Below are positions 1,276 to 15,961 of a DNA stretch of 32,000 nucleotides, piece by piece. Position numbers and translations under genes: made by a program. The notes beneath the pieces were generated by a model. That model made no database searches and had not been told where the DNA came from. It worked only from the letters and a program-made list of their open reading frames with translations. Positions within the stretch are counted from its first letter, which is position 1. Each line of letters starts with the position of its first letter. The stretch covers positions 2,571,127 through 2,603,126 of the forward strand of contig NC_004459.3 in the NCBI RefSeq assembly GCF_000039765.1. The letters are read 5' to 3'. Origin of the DNA: Vibrio vulnificus CMCP6. GTDB taxonomy: Bacteria; Pseudomonadota; Gammaproteobacteria; Enterobacterales; Vibrionaceae.

Positions 1276-2366
1276 CTTAGTATCAAGTTTGAAGTGCGAC
1301 ACTTTTTACAGATGCGCATGAATATACTCCGTTGGTGTCCTATACCCAAGTCTTTTGCGTGGGCGCGTATTTAATTTGTGTGCAATTTCATTGCAGAGCT
1401 TCTGTGTTACGTGTGACATAGAAGTTCGTTTTGGTAAGTATTGTCGTATCAAACCATTGGTGTTTTCATTAGTCCCTCGCTCCCATGAATGGTATGGATT
1501 TGCAAAGTAAAACAGACAGTTATGATGTTTTTCCAGTTGTGCATAACCATGAAATTCAGTGCCGTTATCCGCAGTTATCGTCTTAAAAGGTAAGTCAGAG
1601 CGGGTCATGATTTTGCTCATTCTTACGTTGAGCGACTCGCTTGTTCTATCGTCCATTTGCCCTATAAAAGTGTAGCCAGTCATTCTGTCGACTAAAGTTA
1701 CGATACAGTGCTTGGTTCCGCGGCCAACGACGGTATCAATTTCCCAATGGCCAGGCTCATTTCGATGCTCAGCTTTTGCAGGTCTTTCGGTAATATGACG
1801 CTTTGCTGCCAGCCGACCTCGGCTGTCTTTTGAGTTATATCTTTTGCGCCTTTTCTTGGTCGATTGGCGTAGATGTTTCCATAGTGTTCCACCGAGAGTT
1901 TTGTCGTTCCAAATATGCTGATAAATGAGCTCGTGGCTCATTGTTGGATAGCCTCTTACCCTTAGGTATCCGACGATTTGGTCAGGGCTCCAATCCAGTC
2001 GTAGCAAGGCTTCAGGTAACCTGAAGTCGATTTCGCTATAGCGCTTGTTTCTGCGCGAGCGGCTTAGCCGGTTGCGAGCCATCTGTTGGGCTCTCCATGC
2101 TTGATAGGAGAACCTTCTAAAGTGTCTGTTGTATCGGGAATTACGTTCAATTTCTCGATAGATAGTAGCTTTGTGACGACCTAGTTGTTTAGCTATTTTA
2201 GCGGTACTAATTCCTTGCTTTCTGAGCGCAGAAATCATATACCTTTCGTTCTCAGTGAGGTGCGTGTATCTCATGTTTTTTACTTCTTGGCGGGAGCAAA
2301 CTTCATGATTATCGCATCTCACTGTTTTTATGTTCAGAGGTGTCGCACTTCGTACTTGAATCCAAG
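1276..2366 (-). mobile_element. IS30-family insertion sequence, copy 1 (1091 bp)
   Basis: 27-bp imperfect terminal IRs: CTTAGTATCAAGTTTGAAGTGCGACAC (1276-) and the reverse complement of GTGTCGCACTTCGTACTTGAATCCAAG (-2366). AAA flanks both ends, a possible 3-bp TSD. Single transposase ORF. Confidence 0.9.
1306..2274 (-). CDS. IS30-family DDE transposase
   Basis: N-terminal HTH (LTENERYMISALRKQGISTAKIAKQLGRHKATIYREIERN) and a C-terminal integrase-like DDE core (WEIDTV...ITADNGTEF...PYHSWERGTNENTNGL). The ORF track extends to a GTG at 2322; ATG 2274 (MRYTHL) is the more likely start. Confidence 0.9.
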   Translation of the reverse strand: MRYTHLTENERYMISALRKQGISTAKIAKQLGRHKATIYREIERNSRYNRHFRRFSYQAWRAQQMARNRLSRSRRNKRYSEIDFRLPEALLRLDWSPDQIVGYLRVRGYPTMSHELIYQHIWNDKTLGGTLWKHLRQSTKKRRKRYNSKDSRGRLAAKRHITERPAKAEHRNEPGHWEIDTVVGRGTKHCIVTLVDRMTGYTFIGQMDDRTSESLNVRMSKIMTRSDLPFKTITADNGTEFHGYAQLEKHHNCLFYFANPYHSWERGTNENTNGLIRQYLPKRTSMSHVTQKLCNEIAHKLNTRPRKRLGYRTPTEYIHAHL

Positions 2367-2370
2367 AAAT

Positions 2371-2492
2371 ATAACAAGGCGTTCAAGTGGGATTCATGCC
2401 GCGTGGCATTTTTAGTATGCGGTGTTTTTTGGTGGGTAAAGTGGTCTGCGGAAAGTTGTTTAGGCGGCATTCACCCCTTAACGCAGCGTTAG
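2371..2492 (+). repeat. attC site 3
   Basis: ATAACAAGGCGTTCAAGTGGGATTCATGCCGCGTGGCA ... GCGGCATTCACCCCTTAACGCAGCGTTAG. Begins 4 nt after the IS30 end. Confidence 0.9.
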
Positions 2493-2607
2493 AGCGCACC
2501 TACAATAATCACATTTTGTGACCGTGTTTAAAATGCCATACTGTTATTGTTTCATATTGTAATCAATCATTTATCATTGGGTTGAATTCATAATTGGAGA
2601 TTCTTAT

Positions 2608-3294
2608 ATGGCAAGATGTACTGCACCAGTAAATGGTCACCGTACAGCAAGTGCTAGAGCTAACTGTCCAGCATGCAGTAGCCGTGGTAGCTACAGTTCA
2701 TATTCATCATACCCTTCGTCCTCATATTCATCGTTTGGAGGAAGTGGTTACCGTTCAGGTGGTTCAAGCTCAAGTAGCCCAAGACCAAGTTGGTCAAGTC
2801 CAGGCTCTTCTGTAGTTTATACTCAAGCTGAAATTAGAACTCTTACTCCAGTCCGAAAAAATGTAGAGAGACGAGCTTCTAAACCTGATCTTCGCGATGT
2901 CTTCCTATGTCACGCTTGGGATGACCGTAAAGGAATCGCCAAGGAGTTACATGATTTACTCGAAGCTAAGGGTGTTTCAGTTTGGTTTAGTGAAAAAGAC
3001 GTTTTGCTCGGCTCAAACTTAATGCGTGAAATCGATAAGGGTTTAGCTAAATCAAGAATTGGAATTGTTATGGTAACGCCATCATTTTTGAAGCGCATAG
3101 CTGGCGAGGGGGTTGCTGACAAAGAGCTTTCGGCTTTACTCTCTACTGATTTGCTAGTACCAATTGTCCACGACACTACGTATGACGATCTTCGGGATGT
3201 AAGCCCGTTACTAGGTTCGCGAAGTGGCTTAGATACAGCAGAAGATCCATTAGATAATGTTGCTAGCAAACTTGCGGAGCTAGTGGCGCTCTAA
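2608..3294 (+). CDS. TIR-domain protein with Cys-motif and Ser/Tyr/Gly-rich low-complexity N-terminus
   Basis: 228 aa. The C-terminal half has TIR hallmarks: DVFLCHAWDD, KGIAKELHDLLEAKGVSVWFSEKDVLLGSNL, IDKGLAKSRIGIVMVTPSFLKR, ADKELSAL. The N-terminus has C4...C20PAC23 followed by SYSSYSSYPSSSYSSFGGSGYRSGGSSSSS. RBS GGAGA lies upstream of the ATG. Confidence 0.85.
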   Translation: MARCTAPVNGHRTASARANCPACSSRGSYSSYSSYPSSSYSSFGGSGYRSGGSSSSSPRPSWSSPGSSVVYTQAEIRTLTPVRKNVERRASKPDLRDVFLCHAWDDRKGIAKELHDLLEAKGVSVWFSEKDVLLGSNLMREIDKGLAKSRIGIVMVTPSFLKRIAGEGVADKELSALLSTDLLVPIVHDTTYDDLRDVSPLLGSRSGLDTAEDPLDNVASKLAELVAL

Positions 3295-3412
3295 CAATCT
3301 GTTTAAGAGTGATTCGCAACGCGTGGCATTTTTACTATGCGTTGCGTTTTGTGTTTAAGGTGGCATGCGGGAGCTTCGGTATTGCGTTGCTCACACCTTA
3401 ACAGGGCGTTAT
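3292..3412 (+). repeat. attC site 4
   Basis: TAACAATCTGTTTAAGAGTGATTCGCAACGCGTGGCA ... GCGTTGCTCACACCTTAACAGGGCGTTAT. The TIR stop codon lies inside R''. Confidence 0.85.
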
Positions 3413-3762
3413 GTTTAATCACGTAAAATCAGTTGGTTGCACTCTTTTTTGCTCACGCAGCTTTCAAGTTTTTCCCTTGTCGGCAAGTTAACATCGTTGA
3501 TCGCTGTTTTCTGGACTCCAATTCGTGGGCGCTAAAAATTCAGAGAGTTGCCTCATTGAAATGTAGTGTTTGGGTGAGGCGAGTGCAGCTTGCTCAGTTT
3601 TAAAGTTAGAGCCTCAGGTTTTCGTTTTCTAACATTGCAACTCAAAGTAAATCCAATTAATTTTATTAGTTAATTCAGTTTTTTAGGCTGTGGCTTTGGT
3701 GTGTAAAGGTAAGTCGAGTTAAGCTCTTGGTATCGTAAAACTTAACCCTTTGAGTCTTAAAC
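3413..3762 (+). other. Gene-less integron cassette, family member 2 (divergent 3' half)
   Basis: Shares the 5' TTAATCACGTAAAATCAG, GTCGGCAAGTT and CAGAGAGTTGCCTCA blocks with member 1 at the same offsets. No credible ORF. Confidence 0.7.
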
Positions 3763-3885
3763 ATAACAAGGCGTTCAAGTGGGATTCATGCCGCGTGGCA
3801 TTTTTGGTATGCGGTTGGTTTTTGTGGTGAAAGTGGTGTGCGGAAAGCTGGTTTAGGCGGCATTCACCCCTTAACGCAGCGTTAT
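3763..3885 (+). repeat. attC site 5
   Basis: ATAACAAGGCGTTCAAGTGGGATTCATGCCGCGTGGCA ... GGCGGCATTCACCCCTTAACGCAGCGTTAT. Confidence 0.9.
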
Positions 3886-3911
3886 GCCTTAACGTGAAAA
3901 CGGGAGAATAT

Positions 3912-4379
3912 ATGAAAGGGAAGATTCTTCGCTGGGTTGATGAACGTGGGTTTGGGTTCATTAAATCTGATGAGCTTGATGGCGACGTATTTGTTCATAT
4001 ATCCAAGTTTCCCCAAGGCTATCGTCGCCCACAAGTAGGTGATCATGTAGAGTTTCATCTGGCAAATAATCAGCCTAAATTAAGTGCAGCAAGTGCTCGT
4101 TTAATTGGCGTGGAACCTCAAAAAACAAACTCTCTTTCAGTTGTAATATCAGCAGCTGTCCTAGGTTTATTAGGTGCTGGATTATACGTGTTTCTTATCG
4201 AACCTAAACTGAACCCAGCGTATGAAAATATGGGTTTTAGTTGTGAAGGTAAAACGTACTGTAGCGAAATGGTGTCTTGTGACGAAGCTAAGTTTTATTT
4301 GTCAAACTGCCCGAACGTAAAAATAGACGGCGACCGTGATGGCATCCCTTGTGAGAGCCAGTTATGTGGCGGCTGGTAG
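3912..4379 (+). CDS. Membrane-anchored cold-shock-domain / Excalibur calcium-binding domain fusion protein
   Basis: CSD (GKILRWVDERGFGFIKSD...DVFVHIS), one TM segment (LSVVISAAVLGLLGAGLYVFLI), and an Excalibur motif (C..M.SCDEAKFYL.NCP.VKIDGDRDGIPCE). ATG 3912 has RBS GGGAGA; the ORF track starts at GTG 3894. Confidence 0.75.
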   Translation: MKGKILRWVDERGFGFIKSDELDGDVFVHISKFPQGYRRPQVGDHVEFHLANNQPKLSAASARLIGVEPQKTNSLSVVISAAVLGLLGAGLYVFLIEPKLNPAYENMGFSCEGKTYCSEMVSCDEAKFYLSNCPNVKIDGDRDGIPCESQLCGGW

Positions 4380-4386
4380 TATCGGC

Positions 4387-4508
4387 ATAACAAACAATTT
4401 AAGAGTGATTCGGCACGCGTGGCATTTTTGATATGCGTTGGTTTTAGTGGTTAAGGCGGTATGCGGCGGCATTGGTATTGCGTGCCTCACACCTTAATTG
4501 GGCGTTAT
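4387..4508 (+). repeat. attC site 6
   Basis: ATAACAAACAATTTAAGAGTGATTCGGCACGCGTGGCA ... GCGTGCCTCACACCTTAATTGGGCGTTAT. Confidence 0.85.
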
Positions 4509-4534
4509 ATTGTTTTTCAAGTTCAGGGATTAAA

Positions 4535-4834
4535 ATGAGTGAGTTATTTAACACTCTGATGGTTTGTGCGGTGTTGGTTTCATTGTTTCCGCTTATAAAA
4601 TCCAGCAAGAGTTTTTATGATGAATGGAGTGAAATGGAGAATGAGCATTGGCGTTCTAGAGGGGCCCCACCGTTCGCAGTGTTCCATTTTGGTATGTTCT
4701 TATTTGTTCCAATGCTTTTCGGCAAAGATCTGGAACAATTGAATAATAAGAGTTTGATAAAACGTAGGAATGATCTCAGGTACAGCTTTGCTATTTTTTC
4801 GCTACTGTTGCTCGCATCCCAGTTAAATCAATAA
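4535..4834 (+). CDS. Small membrane protein, unknown function
   Basis: 99 aa from ATG 4535 (MSELFNTLMVCAVLVSLFPL...) with about 3 hydrophobic segments. The track ORF start at 4472 lies inside attC 6 and is rejected. Confidence 0.55.
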   Translation: MSELFNTLMVCAVLVSLFPLIKSSKSFYDEWSEMENEHWRSRGAPPFAVFHFGMFLFVPMLFGKDLEQLNNKSLIKRRNDLRYSFAIFSLLLLASQLNQ

Positions 4835-4855
4835 ATTGGTTTTGGCAGCATCAAT

Positions 4856-4977
4856 ATAACAAGGCGTTTAAGAGGGATTCATGCCGCGTGGCATTTTTGG
4901 TATGCGGTTAGTTTTGGTGGTGAAGTGGTCTGCGGAAAGCTGGTTTAAGCGGCATTCACCCCTTAACGCAGCGTTAT
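4856..4977 (+). repeat. attC site 7
   Basis: ATAACAAGGCGTTTAAGAGGGATTCATGCCGCGTGGCA ... GCGGCATTCACCCCTTAACGCAGCGTTAT. Confidence 0.9.
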
Positions 4978-5448
4978 ATGCAATGGATTGGAATGTTTAT
5001 GAAAGGATTAAATGGCATCTTAAACGGTTTCACCTGGGGAATCGGTTTCTCAGTTGCAATCATTCTGAGTGGGTTGGTTTATACAAAGTTTGTTGAACCG
5101 TCGCTCGGAAATATTCTTGAAGACAAAGAAATCGATGACAAAGCAATTGAGTATTTAGCGGATTTCAAAACTGCCTATGGTTTAACATTGAAAAATGTCT
5201 TCAAAGATGGGGACGACGTGCGTTTAGCTGTCGTACAGGAAAACCTTACGGAAGACGCATTATATTCTCGTGAAGTTTTAGCATCTGCGTTTGATGTGAA
5301 TGGTAATTTTATTGGTAATTGTATCGGCGAAAATGAACTTTTCATTATGCAGCCAAAGGAAACCTCTTATCTTGAGATCAAATGTGCATTTGTACCATCG
5401 CAAGTCGAGCAAATCGATTCGTTTAAGTTAAGAATTAAGCCGATTTAG
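4978..5448 (+). CDS. N-terminally anchored protein, unknown function
   Basis: 156 aa with one TM segment (FTWGIGFSVAIILSGLVYTKF) followed by a soluble domain. The start is uncertain, with in-frame ATGs at 4978, 4993 and 4999. Confidence 0.55.
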   Translation: MQWIGMFMKGLNGILNGFTWGIGFSVAIILSGLVYTKFVEPSLGNILEDKEIDDKAIEYLADFKTAYGLTLKNVFKDGDDVRLAVVQENLTEDALYSREVLASAFDVNGNFIGNCIGENELFIMQPKETSYLEIKCAFVPSQVEQIDSFKLRIKPI

Positions 5449-8791: not shown

Positions 8792-9289
8792 CTAGCCTAA
8801 GCTTGCTCTCACATCAGCAATGGTGATGAAGAGTTTATTTTCAGCGTCTTCAAATGCTTGAAAACCATAGCGTTCATAGAAGTGTTTCGCACCGTCTTTG
8901 GCATCAACGATGACAACTGGAAATGCAACGCTATCACTTGCAGCTAATAGCTTTCTGAGTGCGTCAATAAGCAGCCACTCACCAAAGCCTTTCCCTTTGT
9001 ATCGGTCATCGACAGCAAGGCGGGCAATCAGACCACCAGAGGTGGATGATTGGTGTTTTTTTTGTAACTTATCGGGCAATGCCTTTAAGTCAATTGGTGT
9101 CATTGTTAGCGTGTAAAAGCCGATGACATGTGAGTTGTCGTTATCATCTTCCAAAACAAACGTTCTGGTGTTGTCTTTTTTTGCTTGCTGACTCGCCATT
9201 ACTTTTAAGTAATTATTGAGAGCTTCGATACCACAGTTGAATCGGTTTCTATCGTGTTTAGCTTTATCTAGAAGTACCGTATTCATCAT
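8792..9289 (-). CDS. GNAT-family acetyltransferase toxin (TacT/KacT-like) of a type II TA pair
   Basis: 165 aa with a GNAT core (RLAVDDRYKGKGFGEWLLIDAL...FYERYGF). It overlaps the upstream DUF1778-type antitoxin gene by 4 nt. Orientation is reversed relative to the array. Confidence 0.8.
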   Translation of the reverse strand: MMNTVLLDKAKHDRNRFNCGIEALNNYLKVMASQQAKKDNTRTFVLEDDNDNSHVIGFYTLTMTPIDLKALPDKLQKKHQSSTSGGLIARLAVDDRYKGKGFGEWLLIDALRKLLAASDSVAFPVVIVDAKDGAKHFYERYGFQAFEDAENKLFITIADVRASLG

Positions 9290-9558
9290 TGAATTTTGCT
9301 CTCGTATCGATCAGCAGCAGCTTTTAGTTTTGAGCTCTGTGTTGCAGGGCGGTCTAAAGCTTCCATGAGCAACATCGCATCTGCTTGGCTCAGTTTTAAA
9401 GCCTGTTCACGTTCGATGACTTGTTTAGCTTTTTCGATTGCAGCGCTTAGAACAAACGAGTTGATGCTAGACATGCCGGCGATCGCGGCAGCCTTAGTAA
9501 GTAAGTCTTGTGTATCGACATCAACTCTAGCGGTGATGCGAGGCAAAGTAGTAGCCAT
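9286..9558 (-). CDS. RHH / DUF1778-type antitoxin (TacA/KacA-like)
   Basis: 90 aa. The sequence RITARVDVDTQDLLTKAAAIAGMSSINSFVLSAAIEKAKQVIE is typical of the DUF1778 ribbon-helix-helix family. Confidence 0.8.
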   Translation of the reverse strand: MATTLPRITARVDVDTQDLLTKAAAIAGMSSINSFVLSAAIEKAKQVIEREQALKLSQADAMLLMEALDRPATQSSKLKAAADRYESKIQ

Positions 9559-15395: not shown

Positions 15396-15677
15396 ATGAG
15401 CCGTATCCACTTTGACCAAGATATTCAGCCTTTGTCTGAATTTCGTGCTGGCGTAACGTCATTTATTAAACAGATTAACGAAACTCGTAGACCATTAGTA
15501 ATCACACAACGTGGTAAGGGTGTTGCGGTTGTCCTTGATGTTGCGGAATATGAAGCAATGCAGGAGAAGATCGAGTTACTGGAAGAAATGCGTACTGCTG
15601 AAGCACAATTAGCTTCAGGTTTAGGTGTTTCCAATGAAGACGCTCGCGCTCAAGTGTTGGGGCGTATTAAGAAATGA
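15396..15677 (+). CDS. Phd/YefM-family antitoxin
   Basis: 93 aa. Contains PLSEFRAGVTSFIKQINETRRPLVITQRGKGVAVVLDVAEYEAMQEKIELLE. Overlaps the toxin gene by 4 nt (ATGA). Confidence 0.85.
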   Translation: MSRIHFDQDIQPLSEFRAGVTSFIKQINETRRPLVITQRGKGVAVVLDVAEYEAMQEKIELLEEMRTAEAQLASGLGVSNEDARAQVLGRIKK

Positions 15678-15961
15678 AAGTAGTCTGGTCACCACTAGCA
15701 TTACAAAAGTTAGGTGATGCAGCCGAGTTTATTTCACTGGATAACCCAGTGGCAGCAGAAAGCTGGGTTAATGAGGTTTTCGATAAAACCGAACTTCTCT
15801 CAAATATGCCTGAAATGGGGCGAATGGTTCCTGAGTTACCTCATACTAATTATCGTGAAATCCTTTTTGGCCACTACCGAATCATATATAGCCTCAGTCA
15901 TGAAATTCGTGTCCTGACAGTAAGAAATTGTCGTCAAATGCTAACGGAAAGTGATGTGTAG
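15674..15961 (+). CDS. ParE/RelE-superfamily toxin
   Basis: 95 aa. Contains W.P.A...L......I..DNP.AA..W...V......L...PE.GR.VPE......RE...G.YR.IY. Confidence 0.8.
   Translation: MKVVWSPLALQKLGDAAEFISLDNPVAAESWVNEVFDKTELLSNMPEMGRMVPELPHTNYREILFGHYRIIYSLSHEIRVLTVRNCRQMLTESDV

Follow-up and report, generated by a model that had tools for sequence, protein, structure and literature searches.

A solitary TIR-domain gene in a Vibrio vulnificus integron cassette belongs to a widespread, strongly conserved family and is probably antiviral

The cassette and its TIR-domain protein

A stretch of 32,000 nucleotides (nt) from Vibrio vulnificus CMCP6 (RefSeq assembly GCF_000039765.1, contig NC_004459.3, positions 2,571,127 to 2,603,126; hereafter the window, to which all coordinates refer) contains a Vibrio-type chromosomal integron array, in which pattern scans found a 21-nt attC core 18 times and a 20-nt motif of the R' side of attC 15 times, against an expectation of zero for each. 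Between the third and fourth attC sites lies a single open reading frame (ORF) on the forward strand (2608-3294, stop codon included), which starts with ATG and encodes a 228-amino-acid protein with a Cys/His/Cys/Cys (CHCC) motif, a tract rich in Ser, Gly, Tyr and Arg, a helix and a TIR domain. A first-pass annotation of this DNA, drawn from the sequence alone, had reported the same ORF and the same flanking sites, both of which we confirm, and had proposed a self-contained antiphage enzyme that consumes nicotinamide adenine dinucleotide (NAD+; an NADase) and has an undescribed architecture. Judged by its sequence and that of its relatives, the gene is real and probably antiviral.

The numbering of the two sites follows from an alignment of eight attC sites of the window in which the site at 187-308 is counted. 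The third (about 2371-2494, forward strand), with R'' box ATAACAA at its left end and R' box GTTAGAG (2488-2494), belongs to the upstream ASCH cassette, and the fourth (3288-3414, forward strand), with R'' box GCTCTAAC (3288-3295) and R' box GTTATGT (3408-3414), is the attC of the TIR cassette itself. Crossover between G2488 and T2489 on one side and between G3408 and T3409 on the other gives a mobile unit of 2489-3408 on the forward strand, so that the first-pass annotation was right to see a cassette here but not in placing its limits at 2493-3412, and the leader ahead of the ORF (2489-2607, forward strand) measures 119 nt rather than the 115 nt it had given. The 5' end of the cassette, TTAGAGC, taken together with the preceding G (2488-2495), reads exactly as the reverse complement of its own attC's R'' box, which overlaps the stop codon of the TIR ORF; because genuine cassettes require this complementarity, we regard the unit as a real integron cassette, and matches to other arrays end at its edges. 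The leader carries a Shine-Dalgarno-like GGAG 7 nt ahead of the ATG and is 88% identical over 82 nt to that of a Photobacterium cassette (locus L008); a weak sigma-70-like site (TTAACG-17-TACAAT, 2478-2506) spans the attC/cassette junction, and an Rfam search of positions 2300-3600 matched no RNA element.

The sequences that had been quoted as TIR hallmarks are all found in the translation (DVFLCHAWDD, GVSVWFSEKDVLLG, IGIVMVTPSFL and ADKELS), as are C4-x15-C20-P-A-C23 and the Ser/Tyr/Gly-rich tract. Assignment to the TIR family is borne out by profile searches: residues 96-228 (2893-3291, forward strand) match Pfam TIR_2 with an E-value of 3.2e-16 (60.3 bits, the cut-off being 28) and Pfam TIR with one of 1.3e-5, and a family profile run against the PDB matched AbTir (3e-18), PdTIR (1.4e-16), TcpB (5e-16) and also BtTir. 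A model built with AlphaFold2 (AF2) from 35 sequences was unusable (predicted local distance difference test, pLDDT, of 50), and we used the one from an alignment of 115 sequences, which has a mean pLDDT of 72 and reaches 70-90 over residues 61-228, including a confident TIR domain. The top Foldseek matches of this model were PdTIR, BtpA, BtTir and AbTir, with target-normalised template modelling (TM) scores of 0.7-0.9 (0.85-0.89, at a root-mean-square deviation of about 2 Å, for the best-matching chains). Profile and predicted model thus both assign the protein a TIR (flavodoxin-like) fold.

The glutamate of ADKELS, listed before among the TIR hallmarks, is E173, the putative catalytic residue (codon 3124-3126, forward strand). 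In the profile alignment to AbTir (7uwg) it pairs with the glutamate of NYELDG, which we take to be the catalytic E208 of that enzyme, and it is invariant in the 115 sequences. The WxxxE active-site motif of bacterial TIR proteins is present only in part, since A165 stands where AbTir has W204 while the glutamate is kept, and a family-specific insertion of four residues, G166-E167-G168-V169, precedes E173. Within residues 163-173 (3094-3126) this insertion reads GEG(V/I), and its E167, conserved in at least 90% of sequences, could be a second acidic active-site residue. With AbTir, BtTir, PdTIR and BtpA (TcpB) the protein shares about 30% identity (E-values of about 1e-16 to 1e-18), the fold as measured by TM score, the catalytic glutamate, a helical segment ahead of a C-terminal TIR domain and an existence as a single gene. 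It departs from them in lacking the Trp of WxxxE, replaced by Ala165 and the GEGV insertion, and in its N-terminus, which is coiled-coil or lipid-binding in those proteins and here consists of the CHCC motif and the Ser/Gly/Tyr/Arg tract. AbTir and BtTir are cyclases that make isomers of cyclic ADP-ribose (cADPR), and we know of no antiviral role established for any of the four.

Kinship with Brc236 and the absence of a partner gene

The closest precedent for function is gcu236, a mobile-integron cassette whose TIR-domain product, Brc236, was scored as phage-protective when screened as a single cloned cassette in E. coli (Kieffer et al., bioRxiv 10.1101/2024.07.02.601719). A tblastn comparison of the gcu236 DNA printed in the supplement of that preprint with our family revealed full-length homology, the matches falling in three frames owing to optical character recognition errors, and the DNA translates to VAQCTAPVNGHRTASAAA..., FLCHAWDDRQGAAKQLHDLLEGAGVKVWFSEKDL... 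and DKELSTLL..LVPIVHGTTYDALRDVSPMLASRSGLDT. Both proteins contain the N-terminal motif xxCTAPVNGHRTAS, FLCHAWDDR, VWFSEKD, DKELS and LVPIVH..TTY..LRDVSP.L.SRSGLDT, and both are the products of single-ORF cassettes. They differ in that the attC of gcu236 is short and of the mobile-integron type whereas that of the Vibrio cassette is chromosomal and about 125 nt long, and in that Brc236 stands nearer to the E. coli/Klebsiella subtype (about 60-75% identity over the readable stretches of a machine-read, frameshifted text). On this sequence evidence the V. vulnificus gene and Brc236 belong to the same protein family over their whole length and are orthologues, and the earlier proposal of an antiphage gene gains support from the phenotype of the latter. 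The available text of the preprint does not analyse the mechanism or the N-terminus of Brc236.

The claim of novelty fared less well. The PADLOC model PDLC00424, named 'ThsB1|ThsB', covers the protein from end to end (residues 1-228 against 1-234 of 234, E = 1.8e-117), and Brc236 had already been cloned and screened. Single-gene TIR defences and integron-borne defence cassettes are both documented, and the gene is not a new kind of system; the earlier interpretation is therefore supported in part, with its novelty overstated. Searches of the literature by accession or motif (WP_001389195, WP_031591821, WP_114213634, MARCTAP) returned no mention of the family, and no TIR cassette was mentioned in the integron preprints searched besides that of Kieffer et al. 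According to Wang et al. 2024 (PMC11350192), three single-protein TIR systems of E. coli, TIR-V and TIR-VI as well as TIR-IX, need their TIR active site for defence, the phage portal (TIR-V and TIR-IX) or tail fibre (TIR-VI) is implicated as the trigger and is toxic when co-expressed, protected cells die faster after infection than unprotected ones, and 20 further candidates were inactive. The V. vulnificus protein resembles these systems, as described there, in that a single protein combines a TIR domain at its C-terminus with a variable N-terminal part.

The PADLOC match raises the alternative that the protein is a ThsB-like, signal-generating TIR whose product, a cADPR-type nucleotide, serves an effector with its gene elsewhere in the genome, as one half of a split or orphan Thoeris-like system. 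The filing of a defence-annotated TIR family as ThsB over its full length speaks for this, as does the cADPR-isomer cyclase activity of its nearest structural relatives, AbTir and BtTir. Thoeris is defined, though, by a ThsA effector beside ThsB, and none of the PADLOC models matched any of the 35 other ORFs of the window at E<=1e-5, ThsA included, and the first-pass annotation was right that the cassette has no partner gene. The search was extended to the family's loci elsewhere. Across 80 loci from other species, which together represent at least 10 phyla, neither ThsA nor any other conserved neighbour recurs; when ORFs within 10 kb of 87 loci were clustered, no neighbour was common to more than 13 of them, the commonest being ABC ATPases (13), HsdM (7), phage integrases (6), IntI-like integrases (5) and HsdR (4); and no PADLOC family appears more than three times among 132 immediate flanking proteins. 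The gene is solitary in the window and in these 80 loci, and membership of Thoeris fails for want of an adjacent ThsA. Moreover, the 50 best Foldseek matches include no structure described as ThsB or Thoeris, the gene travels alone in cassettes, on small plasmids and in islands and would leave an unlinked partner behind with every transfer, and Brc236 was scored as protective when cloned by itself (Kieffer et al., bioRxiv 10.1101/2024.07.02.601719). We consider a split Thoeris-like system very unlikely.

The N-terminal module

Ahead of the TIR domain, the protein consists of three segments. The first, residues 1-27 (MARCTAPVNGHRTASARANCPACSSRG; 2608-2688, forward strand), contains C4, H11, C20 and C23, which are invariant in alignments of 115 and of 82 sequences; in the former M1, T5, A6, P7, G10 and P21 are invariant as well. 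The first-pass annotation had noted the three cysteines but had overlooked His11, and the resulting Cys/His/Cys/Cys arrangement suggests a metal (zinc) knuckle, although the N-terminus had no significant match in Pfam, PHROGs or the PDB and the pLDDT of residues 1-27 is low (57-68). The second segment is a low-complexity tract (residues 24-61; 2677-2790, forward strand). It is predicted to be disordered, with a pLDDT below 50 at residues 28-55 of the AF2 model. The third is a conserved linker (residues 62-95; 2791-2892, forward strand), in which W62, S67, Y71, R77, L79, T80, P81, R83, E87 and R89 are conserved and a helix is predicted at residues 73-91, ahead of the TIR domain (pLDDT 85-88); at the sequence level, similarity to BtpA (chain 4lzp_B) begins within it, at residue 79. 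Residues 1-62 include six Lys/Arg and no Asp or Glu, and in the TIR domain 23 Asp/Glu outnumber 16 Lys/Arg.

Across the family the tract measures 34-46 amino acids and is composed of 36% Ser, 17% Gly, 12% Tyr and 11% Arg, with about 0.2 acidic residues (Asp and Glu) per tract. Its composition, with about 5 aromatic and about 5.5 basic residues, holds steady while the GC content at third codon positions (GC3) of the gene ranges from 0.13 to 0.78, genes below 0.30 and above 0.60 being the same in this respect, and no tandem repeats in the DNA underlie it. Because the composition is constant over this range and is not encoded by DNA repeats, it is selected at the level of the protein, and the lack of tandem repeats also means that there is no phase variation of the slippage type. 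In having Tyr and Arg as potential stickers among Ser and Gly spacers, no acidic residues and predicted disorder, the tract resembles the prion-like domains of the FUS family, from which it differs in its length of only about 40 residues. Its constancy and predicted disorder are compatible with a role in self-assembly, and TIR catalysis generally requires self-association, as in SARM1, plant TIR proteins and AbTir. Our literature search found no experiment that demonstrates condensation of a bacterial TIR protein.

An antiviral TIR protein could also be built with the tract as a mere flexible linker, sensing and oligomerisation being left to the CHCC motif, the helix at residues 73-91 and the surfaces of the TIR domain, with no condensate formed. 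Some rare members of the family (P0270-P0272 and P0193) replace the tract with ordinary sequence while keeping the CHCC and linker motifs, and such variants show that the tract is no absolute requirement for a protein of this type to fold. The helix itself is confidently predicted and homologous to the one preceding the TIR domain of BtpA, and the very low rate of amino acid substitution in the TIR domain, described below, fits a surface with many constrained interfaces. However, a mere linker would be expected to drift with GC content, whereas the tract keeps its numbers of Tyr and Arg, its Ser content and its lack of acidic residues over the whole range of GC3, and a second homologue search, seeded with P0270, put the tract-less variants at only about 3 of more than 8000 clusters at 90% identity. 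A linker-only tract is, to our mind, rather unlikely.

We also considered whether the N-terminus is a sensor shared with other effectors. Residues 1-95 alone, searched against 1.84 billion representative proteins, returned 197 matches, nearly all of them fragments of members of the same family, and the small number of long matches (P0205, which has a TamB-like tail, P0241 and P0174) resemble assembly chimeras or frameshifts. By these sequence matches, the N-terminal module is not a shuffled sensor domain and occurs almost only with this TIR domain.

Mobility, selection and a proposed mechanism

The cassette moves on its own: the identical protein occurs in at least eight different cassette neighbourhoods of other Vibrio genomes, and DNA similarity to the Vibrio arrays L094, L095 and L097 and to L008 stops at 3411-3416, at the cassette boundary, with flanking cassettes that differ between genomes. 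No intI is among the ORFs of the window, and the array extends past its left end; at the Photobacterium locus the orthologous cassette has an IntI-like integrase 2 kb upstream of it. An IS30-family insertion sequence (rve and HTH_38; 1276-2366, reverse strand, with the transposase ORF at 1306-2322), located between the ASCH ORF and the third attC site, faces against the array and probably cuts the TIR cassette off from upstream read-through transcription; it is missing from array L093, which is otherwise 99.9-100% identical to the window. Two paralogous cassettes with no convincing ORF (309-656 and 3409-3790, about 70% identical) are also present, the second directly after the TIR cassette. 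This ORF-less cassette family is multi-copy in Vibrio arrays (four copies in 6.7 kb of L091) and follows the TIR cassette in five of the eight contexts, which is probably a matter of mere abundance, although its members may function as non-coding RNA. In array L094 the cassette adjoining the TIR cassette (3822-4631 of that locus) encodes a second, different TIR-domain protein of 269 amino acids. Other cassettes of the window, including those at 8792-9558 and 15396-15961, encode the toxin-antitoxin proteins ParE/Phd-YefM and TacA with a GNAT protein, and three GNAT acetyltransferases and further rve-type transposases are found in the array as well. Recognisable attC sites end near 18.3 kb of the window, beyond which lie ordinary chromosomal genes (MatE, lumazine-binding/riboflavin synthase, fructosamine kinase and a GGDEF response regulator).

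Outside Vibrio, the same gene is found in cassettes with quite different attC sites (L029, L039, L043, L031/L071 and L004/L010/L011, the last three with a common 5' end, GTTAGAGCGC). Those of L039, L029, L043 and L031/L071 are short, of the mobile-integron type and 60-80 nt long, against the repeats of about 125 nt in the window. That one gene carries such different attC types implies exchange of attC or repeated formation of the cassette. Inspection by eye shows clear cassettes at about a dozen non-Vibrio loci; a heuristic attC finder applied to 82 loci was too noisy for a count, with hits in 15 of 78 downstream regions compared with 39 of 400 control windows. Other routes of mobilisation are suggested by single loci. 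In Enterobacter kobei (L005, 7762-9157) a family member sits between the toxin gene cbtA and the antitoxin gene cbeA in a prophage-type island, flanked by about 240 bp and 470 bp and preceded by the motif GCTAAC-A-GTTAGGC, possibly a scar left when an integrase inserted the gene at a secondary site. On the Acinetobacter baumannii plasmid p2VB280820 (L089, 9.9 kb), a small mobilisable tet(39) plasmid, a member lies at 4323-5033; by analogy with other plasmids of this kind, built from XerC/D (pdif) modules, this would be another route by which the single gene is mobilised.

The family is large and widely distributed. A word-indexed search yielded at least 8000 clusters at E<=0.001, the best 120 matches being nearly all full-length and 70-100% identical, and a scan of one genome per species found members in at least 518 species of at least 10 phyla at 63-95% identity, including Proteobacteria, Bacteroidota, Firmicutes, Acidobacteriota, Planctomycetota, Verrucomicrobiota, Chloroflexota, Myxococcota and Vampirovibrionales. 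Members are carried by small plasmids of Acinetobacter, by plasmids of Enterococcus, Bacillus cereus and Rhizobiales and by about 140 plasmids of Klebsiella, of which the one inspected is conjugative (IncFIB/IncFII), and the E. coli member WP_001389195.1 is present in 109 of 5426 complete genomes. None occurs among 50,697 GenBank phage records, and IMG/VR has 24 loci with a member among 2.9 million contigs; on these counts we rejected an origin in phages or an anti-defence role. The GC3 of the gene tracks that of its host, synonymous sites are saturated between distant members, and the ratio of nonsynonymous to synonymous substitution rates (dN/dS) for close pairs is about 0.04 (0.02 in the TIR domain and 0.07 in the N-terminus). 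By these measures the family is an old, strongly purified sequence and not the product of a recent sweep.

Housekeeping-like purifying selection of this order would also suit a role in NAD+ consumption or signalling that is not antiviral, be it manipulation of a eukaryotic host in the manner of BtpA/TcpB, the poisoning of other bacteria, or the stabilisation of arrays and plasmids, by addiction or otherwise. The closest solved relatives do include that host-targeting effector of Brucella, conjugative plasmids often carry the family, and toxin-antitoxin cassettes are common in the array of the window. Host-specific virulence, on the other hand, is at odds with a family whose free-living carriers come from many phyla and include marine, soil, groundwater and anaerobic taxa; neighbour clustering and PADLOC searches of the flanks revealed no linked immunity or antitoxin gene, and no secretion signal is evident in the sequence. 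Genes for type I restriction-modification, AbiL, RmrA and reverse transcriptases recur nearby, and the phage phenotype of Brc236 (Kieffer et al., bioRxiv 10.1101/2024.07.02.601719) also runs counter to such a role, which we regard as quite unlikely.

We favour, by a little more than an even chance, the interpretation that the product of the cassette is a self-contained antiviral TIR effector made of a single protein, orthologous to Brc236, which acts as an abortive-infection NADase with a sensing or assembling N-terminus. Several observations weigh against it. The low dN/dS and the 63-78% identity kept across phyla are unlike those of typical, fast-evolving phage sensors; the small CHCC-bearing subgroup P0270-P0272 does without the Ser/Tyr/Gly tract; the AF2 model is unreliable for the first 60 residues; with Ala and a four-residue insertion in place of the WxxxE Trp, catalysis or its product may differ from that of other TIR enzymes; and Brc236 is not one of the 13 cassettes characterised in depth in the available account of Kieffer et al. 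(bioRxiv 10.1101/2024.07.02.601719).

In the mechanism we propose for such an effector, the protein would be monomeric or dimeric and inactive in the uninfected cell. Upon infection, the basic N-terminal module, made up of the Cys/His/Cys/Cys knuckle and the Tyr/Arg/Ser/Gly tract, would recognise a trigger, perhaps a polyanion such as phage nucleic acid or, alternatively, a conserved protein. The resulting rise in local protein concentration would allow the TIR domains to build an active oligomer, as those of AbTir and SARM1 must, and the assembled domains would cleave NAD+ by means of E173, perhaps also forming a cADPR isomer as AbTir and BtTir do, with the result that the infected cell would stop growing ahead of phage release. 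In this scheme we infer NADase activity, the binding of zinc, the nature of the trigger, tract-mediated assembly and an abortive outcome, the sensing and assembling role of the N-terminus drawing on its composition and conservation and on the parallel with AbTir, SARM1 and plant TIR proteins. Because dN/dS is very low and the gene is portable across phyla, a generic trigger (nucleic acid or a highly conserved protein) seems indicated and a fast-evolving phage protein less likely, although many constrained TIR-TIR interfaces could explain both features instead.

A more specific version of this mechanism, which we put forward as speculative and doubtful, is a universal, host-independent switch in which the basic module of about 60 residues, a CHCC zinc knuckle together with the FUS-like Tyr/Arg/Ser/Gly tract, would bind a generic polyanion associated with infection, such as phage nucleic acid, condense and thereby concentrate an AbTir-type TIR domain into its active assembly. 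If true, the protein would be the first enzyme of bacterial immunity to be switched on by a condensate that a low-complexity domain drives, and such a generic switch would explain why one and the same protein of 230 amino acids can serve hosts from Clostridia to Vibrio without change while being under purifying selection of a housekeeping-like kind.

The reach of the family, its dN/dS of a kind unusual for an immune sensor and its N-terminal module were not found in the literature searched, and what remains of interest in this gene is the pairing of a CHCC motif with a compositionally conserved tract, together with the unusual conservation of the family as a whole. Should the tract drive assembly, the 228-residue protein would offer a small, portable model for the switching of TIR domains by self-association, comparable to SARM1 and to plant TIR immunity. 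As a putative phage-resistance determinant carried on clinical plasmids and integrons, the family would also bear on phage therapy.

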